NCBI GenBank assembly: GCA_964370635.1 | Contig: CAYJJU010000019.1 | Location: forward strand, 4,900 to 33,315 | Origin: an uncultured Eubacteriales bacterium | Lineage (GTDB): Bacteria > Bacillota > Clostridia > Oscillospirales > Acutalibacteraceae | Length of the DNA: 28,416 nt | Reading direction: 5' to 3' | Shown: positions 1-6,078 of the stretch, one piece after another | Numbering within the stretch: position 1 is the stretch's first letter | Layout: each line of letters starts with the position of its first letter | Translations under genes and position numbers: made by a program | The notes under the pieces: model-generated | Databases searched by the model: none | Told to the model about the DNA's origin: nothing | Seen by the model: only the letters and a program-made list of their open reading frames with translations

Positions 1-3000
1 ATAAACGGCGGCAATGTCACGGCAGAGAGTACGTATGGTGCGGGCATCGGCGGCAGTTCTGGCAGTAGTATCGGTGGTGCCGGTGGCACAGTTACGATAA
101 ACGGTGGCAATGTCACAGCAGAGAGTACGTTTGGTGCGGGCATCGGCGGCGGTGACGGCATCAATATGGGTGATCCCGGAATATTTTCCACGGGTACAGA
201 CGGCAATGCCTTTATTGTGGCCTCCTCTATCTCTGATAACTACATCACAAGCGACTGGTCGGGTGTAATATTTGAGGGTGATGAAGGAGGAGTGTATGGA
301 AGTTCTGTAACACTTGAAACAGACGCAGAAATTCCCGCGGGAAAAACACTTACTATATATCCAGGGCAAACCCTGATTGTTGCAAATGGTGTAACTCTTA
401 CAAATAACGGAGAGATTTACACTTTTGGAAGTGGTGATGTTAGCGGTACAGTTAATGGAAATCAGCCTGTAGGGACAGAATATGACGTGCCGTATATTGA
501 TGAAAATGGAGATGCAAAAACTGCAGACAGTGCCACAGAAGTGAGAGCGACCGACACGGCATGGGGCAGTGCAGGTAGCACAACTTGGTATGTGGCGCAA
601 GGGCGTATCACAAACGCTAATCGCATAGTAGTAACAGGCGATGTCCACCTAATTTTGAATGATTGGACTACTTTACAGGCGACACAGGGTATACAAGTTG
701 AGGACGGCAACAGCCTTACTATATACGGACAGTCATACGGCAAAGGTGTGCTTATTGCGGCACAGAGTGATGCAGGTGCATACACTGCCATTGGCAATAG
801 CACAAATGCGGCGATAGGCGGCAATGCTGATAAAGACGGTGGCACAGTTACGATAAATGGTGGCCATGTCACAGCAGTGAGTGAGTTTGGTGCGGGCATC
901 GGCGGTGGTGCCGGTGTTAGCGGTGGTGACGGTGGCATAGTTACGATAAACGGCGGCAATGTCACAGCAGTGAGTGAGTTTGGTGCGGGCATCGGCGGTG
1001 GTGACAGTCCTGTCGGTACTGCTGGTGGCATAGTTACGATAAACGGCGGTAATGTCACTGCCGAGAGTAGTGAAGCTGCAGGCATCGGCGGTGGTTACGA
1101 CGGTTATCCCGGAACATTTTCCACGGGCACAGACAGCAATGCCTTTATTGTGGCCTCCTCTATCTCCGACAAAGACGAAATAAACAGCTGGTCAGGTGTA
1201 ATATTTGAGGATGATGCAGGAGAAGTGTATGGAAGTTCTGTAACACTTGAAACAGACGCAGAAATTCCCGCGGGAAAAACACTTACTATAAATCCAGGTC
1301 AAACATTGATCATCCCTCGAGGTGTTCGATTCAATATCTCTACAGGCGCCACACTTATCAACGATGGCAATATACAGGTGAAAGGTAGTCTGATAGGCAT
1401 ATTAGATGCTACAGGCAAAGGAACGTTAGATGGCGAAATTGCTGCACTTTCCCACTATATTAGTCAATCTAAATTGCATTTTAGAGCGATTGACGGGCAA
1501 AATCAATACAGCATCGATGGCGGTACCAGTTGGGTATACTACTTCGGTGATATATTTATTTTAATGACCACCACAACAAATAGCGTGGTGGTGGAAAGTG
1601 GCGTCCATAACATCACTTTAGAAGGCGTGAGTATTGACTTGTCGGGTACAGGAAATGCGTGTGCATTTGATATACAAGGCACAGGCACAGCAAACATAAC
1701 CCTAATTGGCACAAACACGCTTATAAGTGGTGAAAATAAAGCAGGCTTGCAAGTGGGAACTGACGCAGCGGTAAACATTACCGGCACAGGCTCACTTAAC
1801 GCAACAGGTGGAACGTCAGGCGCCGGCATAGGCGGTGGAAATATCACCATAAGTGGCGCACCTACAATTACCGCAACTGGTGGTGGAGTGGACGGTAACG
1901 GACTACTTGGACTACACGACCTTAATACTATAGCAATACCAAACACGCTGACATATGCAATGGACGGCAGTGCTATACCTGCAACAGGCTTTACTCTAGG
2001 TACAGGCGCAGACGTCGATTTTAACAAGCAATTTGTAAAAATCGAGCCGTCAATGGTGATAAACTTTGAGTCAAATGGCGGTAGTCAAGCCATGGAAAAT
2101 GGGTATGCCATAAAAGATACACAGTACACCTTACCAGAAAATGCCTTTACAGCACCGACAGATAAAATATTTGACACATGGGACGCAGGCCAACCTGGCG
2201 AAAAGATTACAGTCACAGGCGACATGACCATTAAGGCAATATGGAAGAACTTATTAAGCCAAGACCTACAATTTGCAAATGGAAGCATGACAAAAACCAT
2301 AGGTGACGCTAAGTTTACAAATACTTTAGCAGGTGCAAAAACGACAGTGACTTACATGAGCACAAACGAAGACGTTGCAACAGTAAGCGCAACCGGCGAG
2401 GTGACAATACTTAAGGCAGGAACTACAACAATCGTGGCAATCGCAGAAAAAAGTGATACATACTTTGAAAAAATGGCGCAATATTCACTGCAAATAGAGG
2501 AAAAAGTACCGACAAGTTTTGAAGATATAAAAGATTTTATAGCCTCGTTTGACGTGGATTTCAAACAAATAGTAAAAATTATATTTAATAATGTTGAATT
2601 AGAACTTACAAAAATTGATGAAAATACTTACAGACTTTCGGGTTATCCGTCGGGCGACTCAGTTGTAATAGGAACCGCGGTAGACGGCAGTGTTATAGTA
2701 ACCCTAAACGCAGAGTTCTTAAAAACTTTGCCACAAGGAAACTATAGTCTATCGGTGACAACTTTGTCGGCACCAGACACCCCAGTGGCAACACTGACAG
2801 TATCGGTGCCACAAGCACCAACCCCAACAGTGACAACACAACCAACAACTACCCCAACTACGACTCCAACAACTACCCCAACTACGACTCCAAGCATTAC
2901 CCCAGAAACAGGCGATGATTTTAACCCCGTGTTATGGATATCGATTTTAGCAGTGAGTTTAGTAGCAGTTGTGATTGTAATTATAGTTAAGAAGAAATCA

Positions 3001-3006
3001 AAATAA
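1..3006 (+). CDS. Cell-surface repeat protein, 5'-truncated by the window edge. It has GAGIGGG beta-helix-like repeats, a Listeria-Bacteroides-type repeat, a Big_2-like Ig domain, a PT-rich linker and a C-terminal sorting-signal-like anchor.
   Basis: Frame 1 is open from base 1, so the ORF-track ATG at 166 is internal. Bases 1-165 translate to INGGNVTAESTYGAGIGG...TVTINGGNVTAESTFGAGIGGG, the same repeat as at 838-1100. Other recognisable parts: VINFESNGG...FDTWD...IKAIWK (about 2053-2246), VATVSATGEVTILKAGTTTIVAIA (Big_2-like), and a TTPTTTPTTTPTTTP linker. The C-terminus is ITPETGDD, then hydrophobic VLWISILAVSLVAVVIVIIV, then a KKKSK tail. Confidence 0.85.
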   Translation: MNGGNVTAESTYGAGIGGSSGSSIGGAGGTVTINGGNVTAESTFGAGIGGGDGINMGDPGIFSTGTDGNAFIVASSISDNYITSDWSGVIFEGDEGGVYGSSVTLETDAEIPAGKTLTIYPGQTLIVANGVTLTNNGEIYTFGSGDVSGTVNGNQPVGTEYDVPYIDENGDAKTADSATEVRATDTAWGSAGSTTWYVAQGRITNANRIVVTGDVHLILNDWTTLQATQGIQVEDGNSLTIYGQSYGKGVLIAAQSDAGAYTAIGNSTNAAIGGNADKDGGTVTINGGHVTAVSEFGAGIGGGAGVSGGDGGIVTINGGNVTAVSEFGAGIGGGDSPVGTAGGIVTINGGNVTAESSEAAGIGGGYDGYPGTFSTGTDSNAFIVASSISDKDEINSWSGVIFEDDAGEVYGSSVTLETDAEIPAGKTLTINPGQTLIIPRGVRFNISTGATLINDGNIQVKGSLIGILDATGKGTLDGEIAALSHYISQSKLHFRAIDGQNQYSIDGGTSWVYYFGDIFILMTTTTNSVVVESGVHNITLEGVSIDLSGTGNACAFDIQGTGTANITLIGTNTLISGENKAGLQVGTDAAVNITGTGSLNATGGTSGAGIGGGNITISGAPTITATGGGVDGNGLLGLHDLNTIAIPNTLTYAMDGSAIPATGFTLGTGADVDFNKQFVKIEPSMVINFESNGGSQAMENGYAIKDTQYTLPENAFTAPTDKIFDTWDAGQPGEKITVTGDMTIKAIWKNLLSQDLQFANGSMTKTIGDAKFTNTLAGAKTTVTYMSTNEDVATVSATGEVTILKAGTTTIVAIAEKSDTYFEKMAQYSLQIEEKVPTSFEDIKDFIASFDVDFKQIVKIIFNNVELELTKIDENTYRLSGYPSGDSVVIGTAVDGSVIVTLNAEFLKTLPQGNYSLSVTTLSAPDTPVATLTVSVPQAPTPTVTTQPTTTPTTTPTTTPTTTPSITPETGDDFNPVLWISILAVSLVAVVIVIIVKKKSK
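838..1100 (+). repeat. In-frame tandem coding repeats of about 93 bp (31 aa) inside the surface protein gene. A second array lies at 1-165.
   Basis: The string gttacgataaa(t/c)gg recurs at 91, 847, 940 and 1033. Each unit encodes (I/T)VTINGG(N/H)VTA(V/E)S..(G/A)AGIGGG. Confidence 0.85.
2902..3003 (+). other. Sortase-type cell wall sorting signal candidate: PETG, a hydrophobic helix and a basic tail.
   Basis: cca gaa aca ggc at 2902-2913 encodes PETG. About 20 hydrophobic residues and KKKSK follow, then the stop codon. This three-part layout matches LPXTG-class signals, but the motif reads TPETG rather than LPETG. Confidence 0.5.
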
Positions 3007-3256
3007 GAAAGCGGCCGAAAGGCCGTTTTCAGCGTGTCAAAAAAGTCATACTTTTTTGCACACGCTGTCGGACTGTCCAAAAATCTGCAAGACAAGGAAC
3101 AAATACTTGCAAATGACCGAGTAATACGAGGGTATATGAGGGAAATTTGCAAGTGTCTGTGACGCAGGAAGTAAAAAAAACGAGCCAAGCTGGCTCGTTT
3201 TTTGCGTTTGCGGGTTTTAGGGCAGTCTGAAAGCGGCCGAAAGGCCGTTTTTTTTG
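3007..3256 (+). repeat. Copy A of a roughly 250-bp hairpin-rich intergenic repeat (core 3031-3229), the inverted partner of 4597-4853.
   Basis: By eye, the reverse complement of 4628-4828 aligns with 3031-3229 with only scattered substitutions and 1-2-nt indels. Shared strings include ctgtcggactgtccaaaaatctgcaagacaaggaacaaatacttgcaaatgaccgagtaatacgagggtat and gagccaagctggctc. Terminal cggccGAAAggccg hairpins lie at 3012-3025 and 3234-3247. Confidence 0.9.
3012..3029 (+). terminator. Rho-independent terminator candidate after the surface protein gene.
   Basis: The stem-loop cggcc-gaaa-ggccg is followed by tttt, starting 6 nt after the TAA at 3004-3006. Confidence 0.6.
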
Positions 3257-3286
3257 GTAATAAGTAATAGTGAATAGTGAATAAGT
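3257..3286 (+). repeat. Heptamer micro-repeat array (taataag taatagt gaatagt gaataag).
   Basis: Direct reading of 3257-3286. The same heptamer family recurs at 26038-26070 and on the opposite strand at 25985-26013. Confidence 0.8.
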
Positions 3287-3308
3287 TTTGTAAATTCATA
3301 TTTAATGC

Positions 3309-3338
3309 TTGCAATTTATTACTTTCCTGTGCTAAAAT
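3309..3338 (+). promoter_or_regulatory. SigmaA-type promoter candidate for ilvE.
   Basis: TTGCAA (3309-3314), an 18-nt spacer ending in tgc (a TGn extended -10), then TAAAAT (3333-3338). Confidence 0.45.
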
Positions 3339-3363
3339 AATTAAATAAAGAAAATAAGAAAGA

Positions 3364-4443
3364 GTGATAATAGTGCTTAATATCAAAATAGAAAAAACTA
3401 CTACTCCAAAGGCAAAACCTTTAGACGAAACTAAATTAGGGTTTGGCAATATTTTTACAGACCATATGTTTATTATGGAATATAGCGTGGAAAAAGGCTG
3501 GCATGATGCTAAAATTACACCATATAAGCCAATTTCTATGGACCCTGCGTCTATGGTTTTTCACTATGGACAAGAGATGTTCGAGGGCTTAAAGGCATAT
3601 AATGCGGTAGACGGCAGAGTTTTAATGTTTAGACCACAGAAGAATATCGAGAGGGCAAACAATACAAACAGAAGAATTTGTATTCCTGAAATTAATCCCG
3701 AAGATTTTCTACAGGCAATGACTACACTTATAGATTTAGAAAAAGACTGGATTCCAAAATCAGAGGGCACATCGCTTTATGTAAGGCCTTTTGTAATTGC
3801 GACAGACCCATTCTTAGGGGTAAGACCGTCATTTACATATAAGTTTATGATAATTTTATCACCGGTAGGCGCCTACTATGCAAGTGGTTTAAATCCTGTT
3901 AAAATTTGGATAGAGGACGAGTATGTAAGGGCTGTAAAAGGCGGTATAGGTGAGGCTAAAACAGGCGGTAACTACGTTGCAAGCCTAGCGGCACAAAACA
4001 AGGCGCACGACGAAGGCTACTCACAAGTTTTATGGCTTGACGGAATAGAGAGAAAATATGTCGAAGAAGTGGGCGCTATGAACATCTTCTTTAAAATAGG
4101 TGATAAAGTTGTAACTCCGGCGCTTAGCGGAAGTATCTTACCGGGTGTCACAAGGGCGTCATGCATAGAGCTTATAAAAAGCTGGGGTATGGAAGTAGAG
4201 GAGAGAAAAATCTCGGTTGATGAGCTTGTAGGCGCTGCAAAAGACGGCAGTCTTAAAGAATGCTGGGGCAGTGGCACGGCGGCTGTAATTTCACCCGTTG
4301 GCACACTAAGATTTGGTGACGATGTAATGACCATAGGAGACGGCTCAATAGGAGAAGTAAGCCAAAAACTTTACGACACCGTAACAGGCATACAAGTTGG
4401 TAAAGTAGAAGATAAATTTGGATGGACTTTAGAAGTTAAATAA
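3364..4443 (+). CDS. ilvE: Branched-chain-amino-acid aminotransferase (fold-type IV PLP enzyme).
   Basis: Motifs FEGLKAY, LYVRPF, EAKTGGNYVASL, VEEVGAMNIFF and ILPGVTR, with a length near 355 aa. The start is uncertain: GTG at 3364 and GTG at 3373 are both possible. Confidence 0.9.
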   Translation: MIIVLNIKIEKTTTPKAKPLDETKLGFGNIFTDHMFIMEYSVEKGWHDAKITPYKPISMDPASMVFHYGQEMFEGLKAYNAVDGRVLMFRPQKNIERANNTNRRICIPEINPEDFLQAMTTLIDLEKDWIPKSEGTSLYVRPFVIATDPFLGVRPSFTYKFMIILSPVGAYYASGLNPVKIWIEDEYVRAVKGGIGEAKTGGNYVASLAAQNKAHDEGYSQVLWLDGIERKYVEEVGAMNIFFKIGDKVVTPALSGSILPGVTRASCIELIKSWGMEVEERKISVDELVGAAKDGSLKECWGSGTAAVISPVGTLRFGDDVMTIGDGSIGEVSQKLYDTVTGIQVGKVEDKFGWTLEVK

Positions 4444-4484
4444 AAAAAACGGCTGTGTCGTAATTGTTATAATCTATAAATTTT

Positions 4485-4565
4485 TGTAGGGGCGAACCTG
4501 TGTGTTCGCCCGAAACTAATGGTAAAATCCAAGGTTTCGGGCGGTCACATAGGCCCGCCCCTACA
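4485..4565. repeat. Nested REP-like palindrome: two inverted 32-nt units, each itself a GC-rich hairpin.
   Basis: The left unit is tgtaggggcgaacctgtgtgttcgcccgaaac. A 17-nt spacer follows. The right unit is gtttcgggcggtcacataggcccgcccctaca. The outer arms tgtagggg/cccctaca and cgaaac/gtttcg are complementary. The inner stems are gggcgaac/gttcgccc and gggcgg/ccgccc. Confidence 0.8.
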
Positions 4566-4596
4566 TTTGTGCAAATTTTTTCCTAACAGAGGTTTA

Positions 4597-4853
4597 TTGA
4601 CAGTCTAAAACGGCCGAAAGGCCGTTTCAGACTGTCGAAAAACCCGCAACCGCAAAAAAAATGAGCCAGCTTGGCTCATTTTTTTGCTTCCTGCGTCACA
4701 AACACTTGCAAATTTCCCTCACATACCCTCGTATTACTCGGTCATTTGCAAGTATTTGTTCCTTGTCTTGCAGATTTTTGGACAGTCCGACAGCGTGCGC
4801 AAAAAAAGTAGGACTTTTTTGACACGCTAAAACGGCCGAAAGGCCGTTTTTTT
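4597..4853 (-). repeat. Copy B of the roughly 250-bp hairpin-rich repeat (core 4628-4828), inverted relative to 3007-3256.
   Basis: See copy A. Terminal cggccGAAAggccg hairpins lie at 4611-4624 and 4833-4846. The central aaaaaaaatgagccagcttggctcattttttt looks like a bidirectional terminator. Confidence 0.9.
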
Positions 4854-4856
4854 AAT

Positions 4857-4887
4857 GGAGAATTGAGAATTATTAATGATTAATGAG
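4857..4887 (+). repeat. Heptamer/octamer micro-repeat array (ggagaatt gagaatt attaatg attaatg).
   Basis: Direct reading. The array overlaps the last codons and the stop codon of the minus-strand SEDS gene. Confidence 0.7.
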
Positions 4888-6078
4888 TTCAAATTCTTTA
4901 TAAGAAATTTTATGTGTGTCTCTATGCCTTAGTATGACTTTGCCTTGTCTGTTTCTTTGCATATAAACTGCCTGAACAATGCCTATTCCAAAATATAGAC
5001 ACATCGCAGACGAACCACCTGCGCTATAAAATGGAAGGGTGAGCCCGACAACGGGCAGAAGTGCCAAGGTCATACCTATATTAAATATGGTTTGAATTGC
5101 GATAAGTCCGAAAAAGCCAAAACACATTACCCTACCCATGTCGTCCTTAGCCTTAGACGAGATATATAAAAGTCGCAGTAAAAGTGCGAGCAGGCTCAGT
5201 ATTACAACAGAACAACCTATAAAGCCGAGTTCTTCGCCTACCACAGAGAAAATAAAGTCACTGTGTTGGAAAGTAACTATGTTAGACTCTACCCTAGGGC
5301 CTTGATATAAGCCTTGTCCGGTAAGTCCACCACTGCCTATAGAAAGCCTTCCCTGATATTGCTGGTAACCCTCTTCCATAATTACGGAGGGGTCGTCAAG
5401 GTTATAAACGGCCGTAAACCTGTCAATCTGATATTCTGCAAGGCCGAACTGCCATACTATGGGAAGCATTAGCATTATTATTATGCCTAAAATAGCAAAA
5501 TATCTGAAATTTATGCCTGCGGCAATACTCATAAAAATAAACATAAAGAAGAAAACAAGGCCGGCACCTATGTCATCTTGCCAAGCGCAAAGCGCAAAGG
5601 GCACAAAGGCGTGGGCGGCAAGGCCGATTACCTTTAAAGGCTGATTTAAGACGCCCTCTTCTTTAAGTATGTGTATATGTTTTGCAAAAGTTATGATAAA
5701 AGTAATCTTTACAAGCTCTGACGGCTGAAATGTTCTGCCGAAAATTGAAATCCATGCCGTGGCGTTAACACCGCCTGCACCGGAAACATTAATTCCGAAA
5801 ATCCTAGTATAAAGCATTAAAAGAATAGAAAATACCGCAATAAGCTTCCAATAATTTGAAAATTTATAGTAGTCAAACAAGGGGATAATTATCGCCACGG
5901 CAACTCCTACGACTATAGCGAAAAGCTGAGTGGAATAATAATCTGTTAGTGTAGCCCTTGAAACACTGTTTAATAGTATCAAGGAAAAAGTGGAAATAAA
6001 GGCTATTATCATCCATAAAACCTTGTCCATGTCTTTTATATAACGGAAAATTGAAGAAAAAATACCGTTTCTTTTCAT
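4873..6078 (-). CDS. SEDS-family peptidoglycan glycosyltransferase (RodA/FtsW/SpoVE family).
   Basis: The protein is polytopic and hydrophobic throughout. It carries QPSELVKI and LPFYSAGGSS, which resembles the canonical LPF(I/V)SYGGSS. Length is 401 aa. Confidence 0.85.
   Translation of the reverse strand: MKRNGIFSSIFRYIKDMDKVLWMIIAFISTFSLILLNSVSRATLTDYYSTQLFAIVVGVAVAIIIPLFDYYKFSNYWKLIAVFSILLMLYTRIFGINVSGAGGVNATAWISIFGRTFQPSELVKITFIITFAKHIHILKEEGVLNQPLKVIGLAAHAFVPFALCAWQDDIGAGLVFFFMFIFMSIAAGINFRYFAILGIIIMLMLPIVWQFGLAEYQIDRFTAVYNLDDPSVIMEEGYQQYQGRLSIGSGGLTGQGLYQGPRVESNIVTFQHSDFIFSVVGEELGFIGCSVVILSLLALLLRLLYISSKAKDDMGRVMCFGFFGLIAIQTIFNIGMTLALLPVVGLTLPFYSAGGSSAMCLYFGIGIVQAVYMQRNRQGKVILRHRDTHKISYKEFELINH

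Follow-up and report, generated by a model that had tools for sequence, protein, structure and literature searches.

Insertion sequences of the IS1182 family target palindromes (PMC4923244), and one published scheme derives duplication of a whole stem-loop from attack at its 5' feet (PMC5678879). For IS1272, the best-studied member of the family, the target stem-loop is instead deleted and no duplication is left behind (PMC5678879, PMC4923244). MITEs derived from IS1182 elements also exist, with MITEPye1 as one example (PMC11578231). In the IS30 family, 16-26-bp duplications are attributed to IS1630 of Mycoplasma fermentans in PMC3317919, which cites Calcutt, Lavrrar and Wise (1999; PMC94219).

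The window analysed here, a stretch of 28,416 nucleotides from an uncultured Eubacteriales bacterium of the Acutalibacteraceae, carries ilvE (orthologues in 18/18 genomes of the genus) between two repeats of opposite orientation. Very probably, both repeats are single copies of a ~200-nt IS1182-type MITE, the pair having arisen by two independent insertions (Table 1). At this locus, the first-pass annotation had described near-identical inverted repeats of ~250 bp enclosing ilvE, its own promoter, and a REP-like palindrome. The inverted repeat does exist where it was placed, and the gene, a promoter-like site, and the palindrome all lie within it; between the arms, 3052-3179 and 4679-4806, complementarity is 97% across 128 nt, with more blocks lengthening the match. 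At 92.1% identity between copies A and B (gaps counted), "near-identical" is slightly generous, and the figure of ~250 bp counts separate flanking hairpins. Every internal hairpin listed in that annotation was recovered within the element, the limits of which were defined by an alignment of 40 copies. Folded as single-stranded DNA, 3008-3251 reaches -70.8 kcal/mol, versus -31.4 +/- 3.5 kcal/mol for shuffles (z = -11.2).

The stop codon of the surface-protein gene upstream of copy A occupies positions 3004-3006, and the ilvE promoter-like motifs are also kept upstream of ilvE in both G115 and G116, which are sister species. No recombinase gene was found beside the ilvE bracket. The inner duplication of copy B is adjoined by the end module of a second MITE family, a 47-nt unit with ~15 copies in the genome; elsewhere, this module was found next to the left-hairpin module of the main element.

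Table 1. Predicted features at and around ilvE, by position in the window
Feature	Position	Strand	Remarks
Target-site duplication, left, copy A	3008-3029 (22 nt)	n/a	AAAGCGGCCGAAAGGCCGTTTT; equal to 3230-3251
MITE copy A	3030-3229 (200 nt)	+	CAGCGTGTCAAAAAAG ... GGGCAGTCTG; from homologues and 40-copy alignment
Left terminal hairpin, copy A	3030-3067	+	CAGCGTGTCAAAAAAGT / ACTTTTTTGCACACGCTG; repeat at the terminus, paired with an inverted copy of itself
Inner stem, copy A	3099-3160	+	3099-3114 with 3145-3160; closes 30-nt loop GACCGAGTAATACGAGGGTATATGAGGGAA
Central hairpin, copy A	3174-3203	+	AAAAAAACGAGCCAAGCTGGCTCGTTTTTT; A-run and T-run, terminator-like both ways
Right terminal repeat, copy A	3210-3229	+	GCGGGTTTTAGGGCAGTCTG; pairs with 3070-3090
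Target-site duplication, right, copy A	3230-3251 (22 nt)	n/a	original T-run follows
ilvE promoter-like site	3309-3338	+	TTGCAA, 18 nt, TG-TAAAAT; inside bracket
ilvE, branched-chain amino acid aminotransferase	3364-4443	+	NF009897, 494 bits (cut-off 307)
REP-like palindrome (REP doublet)	4485-4565		between ilvE and copy B
End module, second MITE family	4564-4607	+	right end ...GGTTTATTGACAGTCTA, type as in main MITE
Target-site duplication, inner, copy B	4608-4627 (20 nt)	n/a	AAACGGCCGAAAGGCCGTTT; equal to 4830-4849
MITE copy B	4628-4829 (202 nt)	-	reverse orientation
Target-site duplication, outer, copy B	4830-4849 (20 nt)	n/a	with T-run
FtsW/RodA-type gene	4873-6078	-	convergent

The repeat had also been suspected to be a dispersed, MITE-style intergenic element, and this was borne out by searching the genome and related genomes with the core. 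In the 2.33-Mb draft (93% complete), there are ~20 distinct full-length loci and ~20 fragments, 9 of the latter at contig ends; the element also occurs in both sister species, G115 and G116, the latter with 47 matches, as well as in another genus (G097). Copies are 196-203 nt long, differ by indels, and contain no conserved ORF. Copies A and B are each nearer to copies elsewhere in the genome than to each other, with the closest relative of copy B (C1:23220, on another contig) being 98.0% identical to it, compared to 92.1% for copy A. In tandem gene contexts, the orientation of the element is skewed (11 anti vs 3 co). Plasmid and phage collections yielded no blastn match to the core, and scans for the conserved-loop pattern in collections of genome contigs and metagenome contigs gave 0 matches, near relatives probably being left out of those collections.

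Direct repeats abut the element in 38/46 copies from four genomes. These are 11-40 bp long (median 26), each is different, and 34 of the 38 constitute one complete hairpin spanning the whole repeat, as opposed to 80 of 2000 length-matched windows drawn at random from the genome. The first-pass annotation had counted two "terminal" GGCCGAAAGGCC hairpins as parts of the element. These cggcc-GAAA-ggccg hairpins are instead target-site duplications, i.e., duplicated putative terminators outside the element, with other copies carrying other hairpins. Consistent with this, sister species G116 displays an empty site upstream of ilvE with a single GCGGCCGAAAGGCCG terminator, where ...TAAAAAAGCGGCCGAAAGGCCGTTTTTT... 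is present once, between the same two genes. The duplications of copies A and B are unlike (AAAGCGG... vs AAACGG...); the left duplication of copy A corresponds to the putative terminator hairpin of the upstream surface-protein gene, and the outer duplication of copy B to a putative shared terminator facing the convergent FtsW/RodA-type gene. A composite transposon with ilvE as cargo was also considered and rejected, as each copy is flanked by a matching pair of duplications (H1 = H2, H3 = H4), with no such match between copies, and as the ilvE locus is ancestral, judging from G116.

The terminal repeats of the element are imperfectly inverted (CAGCGTGTCAAAAAAG vs CAGACTGTCGAAAAAC), and its ends, CAGCGTGTCAAAAAAGTCC ... 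GGGTTTTTCGACAGTCTG (the latter being the commoner right-end variant, as in copy B), match those of IS1182-family insertion sequences from the same bacterial family. The end motif CAG-NN-TGTC-R-AAAAA is common to both; IS1182 elements agree with the MITE left end at 14-18/19 bases (18/19 against the MITE consensus for an element in G039) and have the right-end motif TTTTCGACAGNCTG in common with it, the match being one of termini only. An element in G153 (1526 bp, with a 473-aa ORF scoring 400.1 bits against NF033551, cut-off 270) begins CAGCCTGTCGAAAAAGTCC, terminates GGGTTCTTCGACAATCTG, and is flanked by whole-hairpin duplications of 20-33 bp in 6/7 copies, while another in G045 (NF033551, 389.8 bits, cut-off 270) has a 34-bp hairpin duplication. 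In the draft from which the window comes, no IS1182 transposase gene was detected with PF01609, PF13751, or NF033551, nor was PF13751 detected in four other MITE-bearing drafts (G115, G116, G097, and G059), all being drafts in which repeats may be unassembled. Genome self-BLAST revealed no multi-copy element >500 bp as an autonomous partner; its output consisted of gene-family paralogues and a 54-kb stretch on two contigs. Among 400 genomes of the family, no parent insertion sequence was found with end identity beyond the ~19 terminal bases. When family genomes (100, then 400) were queried with the core, MITE copies and short chance-level pieces were all that was returned, and motifs from the MITE interior gave only single one-mismatch chance matches in ~50 IS1182 and related loci. 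Several observations stand against the IS1182 explanation: the MITE interior is unlike the IS1182 elements examined, the transposase gene was not found in MITE-bearing drafts, the end match stops at ~19 bases, and IS1272 deletes its target stem-loop.

As for the interior, 23 of 55 pairs display compensatory changes. Shuffles gave 10.9 +/- 1.6 such pairs and slid controls 3-8; the covariation counts are inflated by shared ancestry of related copies. Pairing in the left terminal hairpin (helices 1-2) amounts to 97-99%, and columns 4/37 and 5/36 show compensatory changes; this module also stands alone beside other elements. In helices 3-4, the partner of the right terminal repeat is the internal left repeat (3070-3090; columns 43-64), which pairs better with the right end than the left terminal repeat does. 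Within the inner stem (helix 5), both partners have changed in 9/16 pairs, and 11-15 of 40 copies have CCCTAA/TTAGGG in place of TTGCAA/TTGCAA. The TTGCAA...tatatg segment, formerly read as a promoter, is ruled out as such by this covariation of the hexamers as stem arms. The 30-nt loop closed by the inner stem is near-invariant, is kept in the G097 genus as well, and is better conserved than the ends across the two genera. In the central hairpin, the stem sequence varies among copies with pairing retained (helices 7-8; 9-10 copies changed on both sides). An Rfam 15 scan of 2800-5100 returned no match to the element reaching the gathering score, the best within it being SraG (24 bits vs a gathering score of 50, E = 0.27); the only strong matches in this interval were spurious microRNA models on the REP doublet.

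For the MITE, we thus propose the following. An IS1182-family DDE transposase would act in trans, binding the imperfect terminal repeats, and its target would be picked by DNA shape rather than by sequence, i.e., a palindrome able to form a hairpin or cruciform; in practice, such palindromes would mostly be rho-independent terminators. Both target strands would be joined to the element, at the palindrome's two feet, with a stagger corresponding to the whole palindrome, and after gap repair a complete hairpin would border the element at either end. Both the cutting geometry and mobilisation in trans are steps that we infer. In this IS1182 clade, the stagger between the two cuts appears, from the duplications compared, to be dictated by how long the target hairpin is. 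At the present locus, ilvE would have been situated between two terminators with the common stem-loop GGCCGAAAGGCC, each struck once, independently, and in opposite orientations. Two opposite hits on GGCCGAAAGGCC terminators would thus give what looks like an inverted repeat of 250 bp "with terminal hairpins." The two copies are taken to be independent because they are only 92.1% identical, because each is nearer to copies elsewhere, and because their duplications differ. Insertion would likely be nearly neutral, since the upstream gene retains an intact terminator.

Mobilisation of the MITE by some other hairpin-targeting transposase, e.g., of the IS30 type (as for IS1630) or the IS701 type, would fit with the duplication length credited to IS1630 and with the MITE-bearing drafts in which no IS1182 transposase was found. 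We nonetheless hold it to be very unlikely, given that the CAG-NN-TGTC-R-AAAAA ends are common to bona fide IS1182-family elements (at up to 18/19 bases) and that same-family IS1182 elements produce the same duplications. Less easily dismissed, though still unlikely, is the idea that the conserved interior is a functional RNA or regulatory cassette under selection, for which mobility is merely the vehicle; i.e., that a functional structured RNA or protein-binding DNA module rides on IS1182-type ends. Such a module, which we regard as improbable, would comprise the co-varying stem, the near-invariant 30-nt loop GACCGAGTAATACGAGGGTATATGAGGGAA, and a built-in two-way terminator. The excess of compensatory pairs over both controls, a loop that outconserves the ends across two genera, the orientation skew in tandem contexts, and an interior not derived from sampled IS1182 elements all point in this direction. 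However, Rfam holds no matching family, no conserved promoter was seen (the TTGCAA hexamers co-varying as stem arms), templated correction can yield paired changes in DNA palindromes without selection, and shared ancestry of the copies inflates the covariation counts. Were the interior functional, the MITE would be furnishing many genes with a working part at their 3' ends, as opposed to inert DNA.

The genome is credited with a RAYT (HUH) transposase and a TGTAGGGG REP family, and one REP doublet lies between ilvE and copy B, raising the notion of a REP/BIME-type repeat spread by RAYT. For an element of 200 nt with terminal inverted repeats and long target duplications, with no GTAG-type REP head, and with ends matching IS1182 elements, such an origin is extremely improbable. 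Equally hard to credit is an inverted duplication of local origin, or an ilvE cassette purpose-built for inversion and serving as a recombination switch. Inverted 200-nt copies with ~80-nt identity runs could support RecA-mediated inversion, yet the element is dispersed, copies A and B are not mutual closest relatives, and no recombinase gene adjoins them. Moreover, inversion of the ilvE segment, as formerly suggested, is not fixed, with gene order and ilvE orientation in G116 being identical to those in the window, and it would not switch ilvE because the promoter sits inside the bracket.

Ultimately, with IS1182-type insertion as the preferred explanation, a housekeeping gene boxed by hairpin-laden inverted repeats would come down to two ordinary insertions of an element whose ends have now been corrected. 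Taken together, the 38 duplications, the single empty site, and the like behaviour of full-length relatives constitute comparative evidence for shape-directed insertion, with a stagger set by hairpin length being poorly documented in print. In annotation, elements of this kind are a source of duplicated terminators and of breaks in short-read assemblies (as with the 9 fragments at contig ends), and they may be taken in error for small-RNA genes or recombination switches.

Compared with known systems, the ilvE-flanking element resembles the IS1182 family (including IS1272/TnSha1 of staphylococci) in that the target is a palindrome or stem-loop without fixed sequence, usually just 3' of a gene, and resembles MITEPye1-like IS1182-derived MITEs in being non-autonomous. 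IS1272 removes the stem-loop, whereas the MITE and related full-length insertion sequences duplicate it whole, an outcome that PMC5678879 depicts only as a possible route; the interior of the MITE also differs, as a conserved structured module absent from the IS1182 insertion sequences examined. IS1630, as portrayed in PMC3317919, is likened to the MITE by behaviour alone, as it belongs to another transposase family, is autonomous, and measures ~1.2-1.4 kb. REP/BIME sequences with RAYT are likewise palindromic extragenic repeats near gene ends; however, REPs are 20-40 nt long, depend on an HUH enzyme, and generate no target duplication, in contrast to a 200-nt element with long duplications. 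Correia elements of Neisseria and the RUP and BOX elements of pneumococcus are also short intergenic repeats, abundant and rich in hairpins, in which promoters or terminators can be present, and the kinship with them that had been suggested reduces to a likeness of style. Correia and RUP derive from other insertion sequence families and duplicate a TA dinucleotide, where the duplications found here are 11-40-bp hairpins; BOX is without terminal repeats; and, to our knowledge, none of the three duplicates a whole hairpin. Hairpin duplication by the ilvE-flanking MITE clearly adds a new case to what IS1182-type elements were already known to do.

Two inverted copies of one sequence surround ilvE in the window, with a beta-helix/Big_2 surface-protein gene upstream and a convergent gene for an FtsW/RodA-type protein downstream. 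The two copies (92.1% identical) belong to a MITE that carries no transposase gene. Every hairpin listed by the first-pass annotation is present in the window, and segment 3008-3251, folded as single-stranded DNA, reaches -70.8 kcal/mol (shuffles, -31.4 ± 3.5; z = -11.2).

Features of the ilvE region (window coordinates) and of two transposase-encoding elements from family genomes G153 and G045
Feature	Position	Strand	Length	Details
Copy A duplication	3008-3029 = 3230-3251			AAAGCGGCCGAAAGGCCGTTTT
MITE copy A	3030-3229	+	200 nt	limits from alignment of 40 copies
ilvE promoter-like site	3309-3338			TTGCAA-18-TGnTAAAAT; 3' of copy A and of its second hairpin
ilvE	3364-4443			NF009897, 494 bits
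REP doublet	4485-4565			TGTAGGGGCG... / ...CGCCCCTACA
Copy B duplication	4608-4627 = 4830-4849			AAACGGCCGAAAGGCCGTTT
MITE copy B	4628-4829	-	202 nt	limits from alignment of 40 copies
G153 element			1526 bp	473-aa ORF; NF033551, 400.1 bits (cut-off 270)
G045 element				NF033551, 389.8 bits; 34-bp hairpin duplication

As proposed from the window alone, the element is dispersed. The draft genome of the source organism, G000 (2.33 Mb, 46 contigs, 93% complete, 38.7% G+C), holds 21 full-length or near-full-length copies, counted as 20 loci since two of them sit in a 54-kb stretch found on two contigs; ~20 further fragments occur, nine exactly at contig ends. Compared pairwise, G000 copies are 79-98% identical (median 89%). 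Of 18 species genomes in the genus, three have the core: G000 and the sister species G115 and G116 (47 matches in G116). Outside the genus, the family was sampled at first 100 and later 400 genomes from 185 genera, and strong core matches came only from G097, which belongs to another genus. The 54-kb stretch (C2:181-54132 and C4:1-53952; 99.998% identity, opposite orientation), which raises repeat counts by one, reflects redundancy in the assembly or else a large duplication that happened very recently. Two MITE copies (C29:15609-15887, C33:76-354) contain a nested ~280-nt insert, bounded by long terminal inverted repeats (AGAGCCTGACCGATGCAATACGAACCCG...), in place of one inner-stem arm; this is a different small element within the MITE.

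In an alignment that includes the flanks, the copies resemble one another only as far as CAGCGTGTC... (left) and ...GACAGTCTG (right); the sequence further out is copy-specific and the same on either side of a given copy. Such abutting direct repeats (11-40 bp, median 26; e.g., AAAAAAGCCCCTCGGGGCTTTTTT, ACACCACAAAGCTAAAAACTTTGTGGTG, and AAGCTACAGGGACAATGGCGTCCCTGTAGCTT) border 38 of the 46 copies in G000, G115, G116, and G097, and a single hairpin spans the whole repeat in 34 of these 38 duplications, versus 80 of 2000 length-matched random genome windows. The terminal hairpins, initially read as parts of the element, are thus target-site duplications, being copy-specific and outside the aligned MITE ends; as these are direct, the GAAA loop lies on the + strand in all four hairpins despite the inverted cores.

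An empty site is preserved in G116, whose IlvE is 99% identical at the protein level (93% for the DNA): there, only one AAAAAAGCGGCCGAAAGGCCGTTTTTT separates the surface-protein gene from the ilvE promoter and gene. Copy A thus inserted after the split of the two species, with a 22-bp duplication. The G116 spacer downstream of ilvE has a different terminator, leaving the copy B site without a comparable empty site. Judged from sequence comparison, copies A and B are independent insertions, because (i) their duplications differ by one base, (ii) their nearest relatives are other copies in the genome (98.0% to one on another contig for copy B; 94.5% to C4:3985 for copy A), and (iii) their right ends are of different variants (AGGGCAGTCTG versus TCGACAGTCTG). 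A composite transposon that carried ilvE in was considered and rejected, as each copy has its own matching pair of duplications and the locus itself is ancestral. Recombination between the copies could physically invert the ilvE segment, as also raised in the first-pass annotation, given their identical runs of ~80 nt; gene order and ilvE orientation are common to both species, so no inversion has been fixed, and the promoter would move along with ilvE, such that inversion would not act as a switch. The promoter-like site, kept in G116 and G115, lies downstream of copy A, and the gene upstream of copy A retains a full terminator; the insertions would thus be expected to have little effect on expression.

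Both ilvE spacers contain terminators with the stem-loop GGCCGAAAGGCC. Three of the six such sites in G000 are occupied (two in the window, one on contig C7), small numbers that hint at a MITE preference for this stable hairpin. These terminators regularly carry a tail of short 7-8-nt units in tandem (AGTGAAT AGTGAAT, GAGAATT GAGAATT, AGTGAAG AGTGAAA), as at window 3257-3285 and 4857-4887, at G000 C31:17676, C1:53731, and C7:7360, and in G116 (L119 ~1205-1245); terminator and tail may themselves form a small repeated unit. The terminator of ilvE itself appears to have served as a target at least twice (4442-4607): a remnant, AAAAAAAACGGC, at 4442-4453 precedes a second MITE-type element that contains the REP doublet and ends ...TTGACAGTCTA at 4607, directly against the full hairpin that begins at 4608. 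Should these limits hold, this element would have duplicated just half a hairpin, AAAACGGC. With the next 40 nt towards ilvE, the doublet is part of a ~125-nt unit present in at least 15 copies in G000; its match to the human microRNA model mir-1972 (47-49 bits) was judged spurious.

Across 40 copies, RNAalifold places a hairpin at the left end, a long fold-back over the other 160 nt, and a central A-run/hairpin/T-run, with 96.9% of cells paired; 23 of 55 pairs are changed on both sides (shuffles, 10.9 ± 1.6, with 0 of 500 reaching 23; slid controls, 3-8). It is the TTGCAA motifs that form the arms of the inner stem, and in 11-15 copies both read CCCTAA/TTAGGG instead. They are thus no -35 box, and a promoter scan found no promoter within the MITE; the promoter first read into TTGCAA...tatatg was therefore abandoned. 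The 30-nt loop of this stem is the best-conserved part of the MITE, G097 copies included, with no counterpart in the IS1182 elements examined; the conserved interior may stem from a need for it in cis during transposition, from templated correction in DNA palindromes, or from an RNA function. Among 14 G000 copies in tandem gene contexts, 11 are oriented against the upstream gene and 3, copy A included, with it, a skew that is suggestive only. The 38-nt left hairpin, in which the terminal repeat pairs with an inverted copy of itself, also stands alone beside other repeat modules (G000 C7:43403, C6:73005, C25:19066; L145 ~2296-2329 in G356, of another genus), where it may represent a minimal element with two ends, or a hairpin that its own family favours as a target.

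No gene of the DDE_Tnp_1, DDE_Tnp_1_6, or IS1182 (NF033551) type, nor any multi-copy element >500 bp, was found in the G000 assembly, and PF13751 had no match in G115, G116, G097, or family genome G059. DDE_Tnp_1_6 matches occur in 34 of 201 genomes of the wider family, and the MITE terminal motif lies at the very ends of several such elements. That of G153 starts CAGCCTGTCGAAAAAGTCC, ends GGGTTCTTCGACAATCTG, and has whole-hairpin duplications of 20-33 bp at 6 of 7 copies. The seventh (L136, C1:489978-491503) has a different hairpin on each side and no duplication, as expected from recombination between copies or a second kind of insertion outcome. The G045 and G153 transposases are 66% identical, and 18 of 19 bases at the left end of the G039 element agree with the MITE consensus CAGCGTGTCAAAAAAGTCC. 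In G059, a different MITE family (~250 nt) shares the ends and the hairpin duplications of the window MITE. It numbers at least 12 copies there, several at contig ends; one (L078 1501-1745; CAGCGTGTCGAAAAA ... TCGACAGCCTGA) lies directly 3' of a tRNA gene with a 19-bp hairpin duplication. Read most simply, one clade of IS1182-family transposases in this bacterial family would move several MITE families, that of the window among them; the exact parent IS was not found in the family genomes, and the end match to IS1182 elements is limited to ~19 terminal bases.

MITE targets resemble one another in shape rather than in sequence, and it is always the palindrome that is duplicated. The pattern fits strand transfer to each foot of an extruded hairpin or cruciform, one foot per strand, with gap repair afterwards, a cutting geometry that we infer from insertion anatomy only. 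Palindrome targeting by other IS1182 members is credited to Siguier et al. (2015) in Furi et al. (PMC4923244). For the IS30-type IS1630, the title of Calcutt et al. (1999), as cited in PMC3317919, speaks of variable-length inverted repeats duplicated on insertion, and PMC3317919 gives duplications of 16-26 bp. A pathway duplicating the stem-loop was drawn as one possibility for IS1272 by Wan et al. (PMC5678879), in whose data the stem-loop is replaced and no duplication left; TnSha1 likewise replaces its stem-loop without duplication (Furi et al., PMC4923244). IS1272 and TnSha1 replace the target stem-loop, whereas the MITE and the G153 IS duplicate the whole hairpin.
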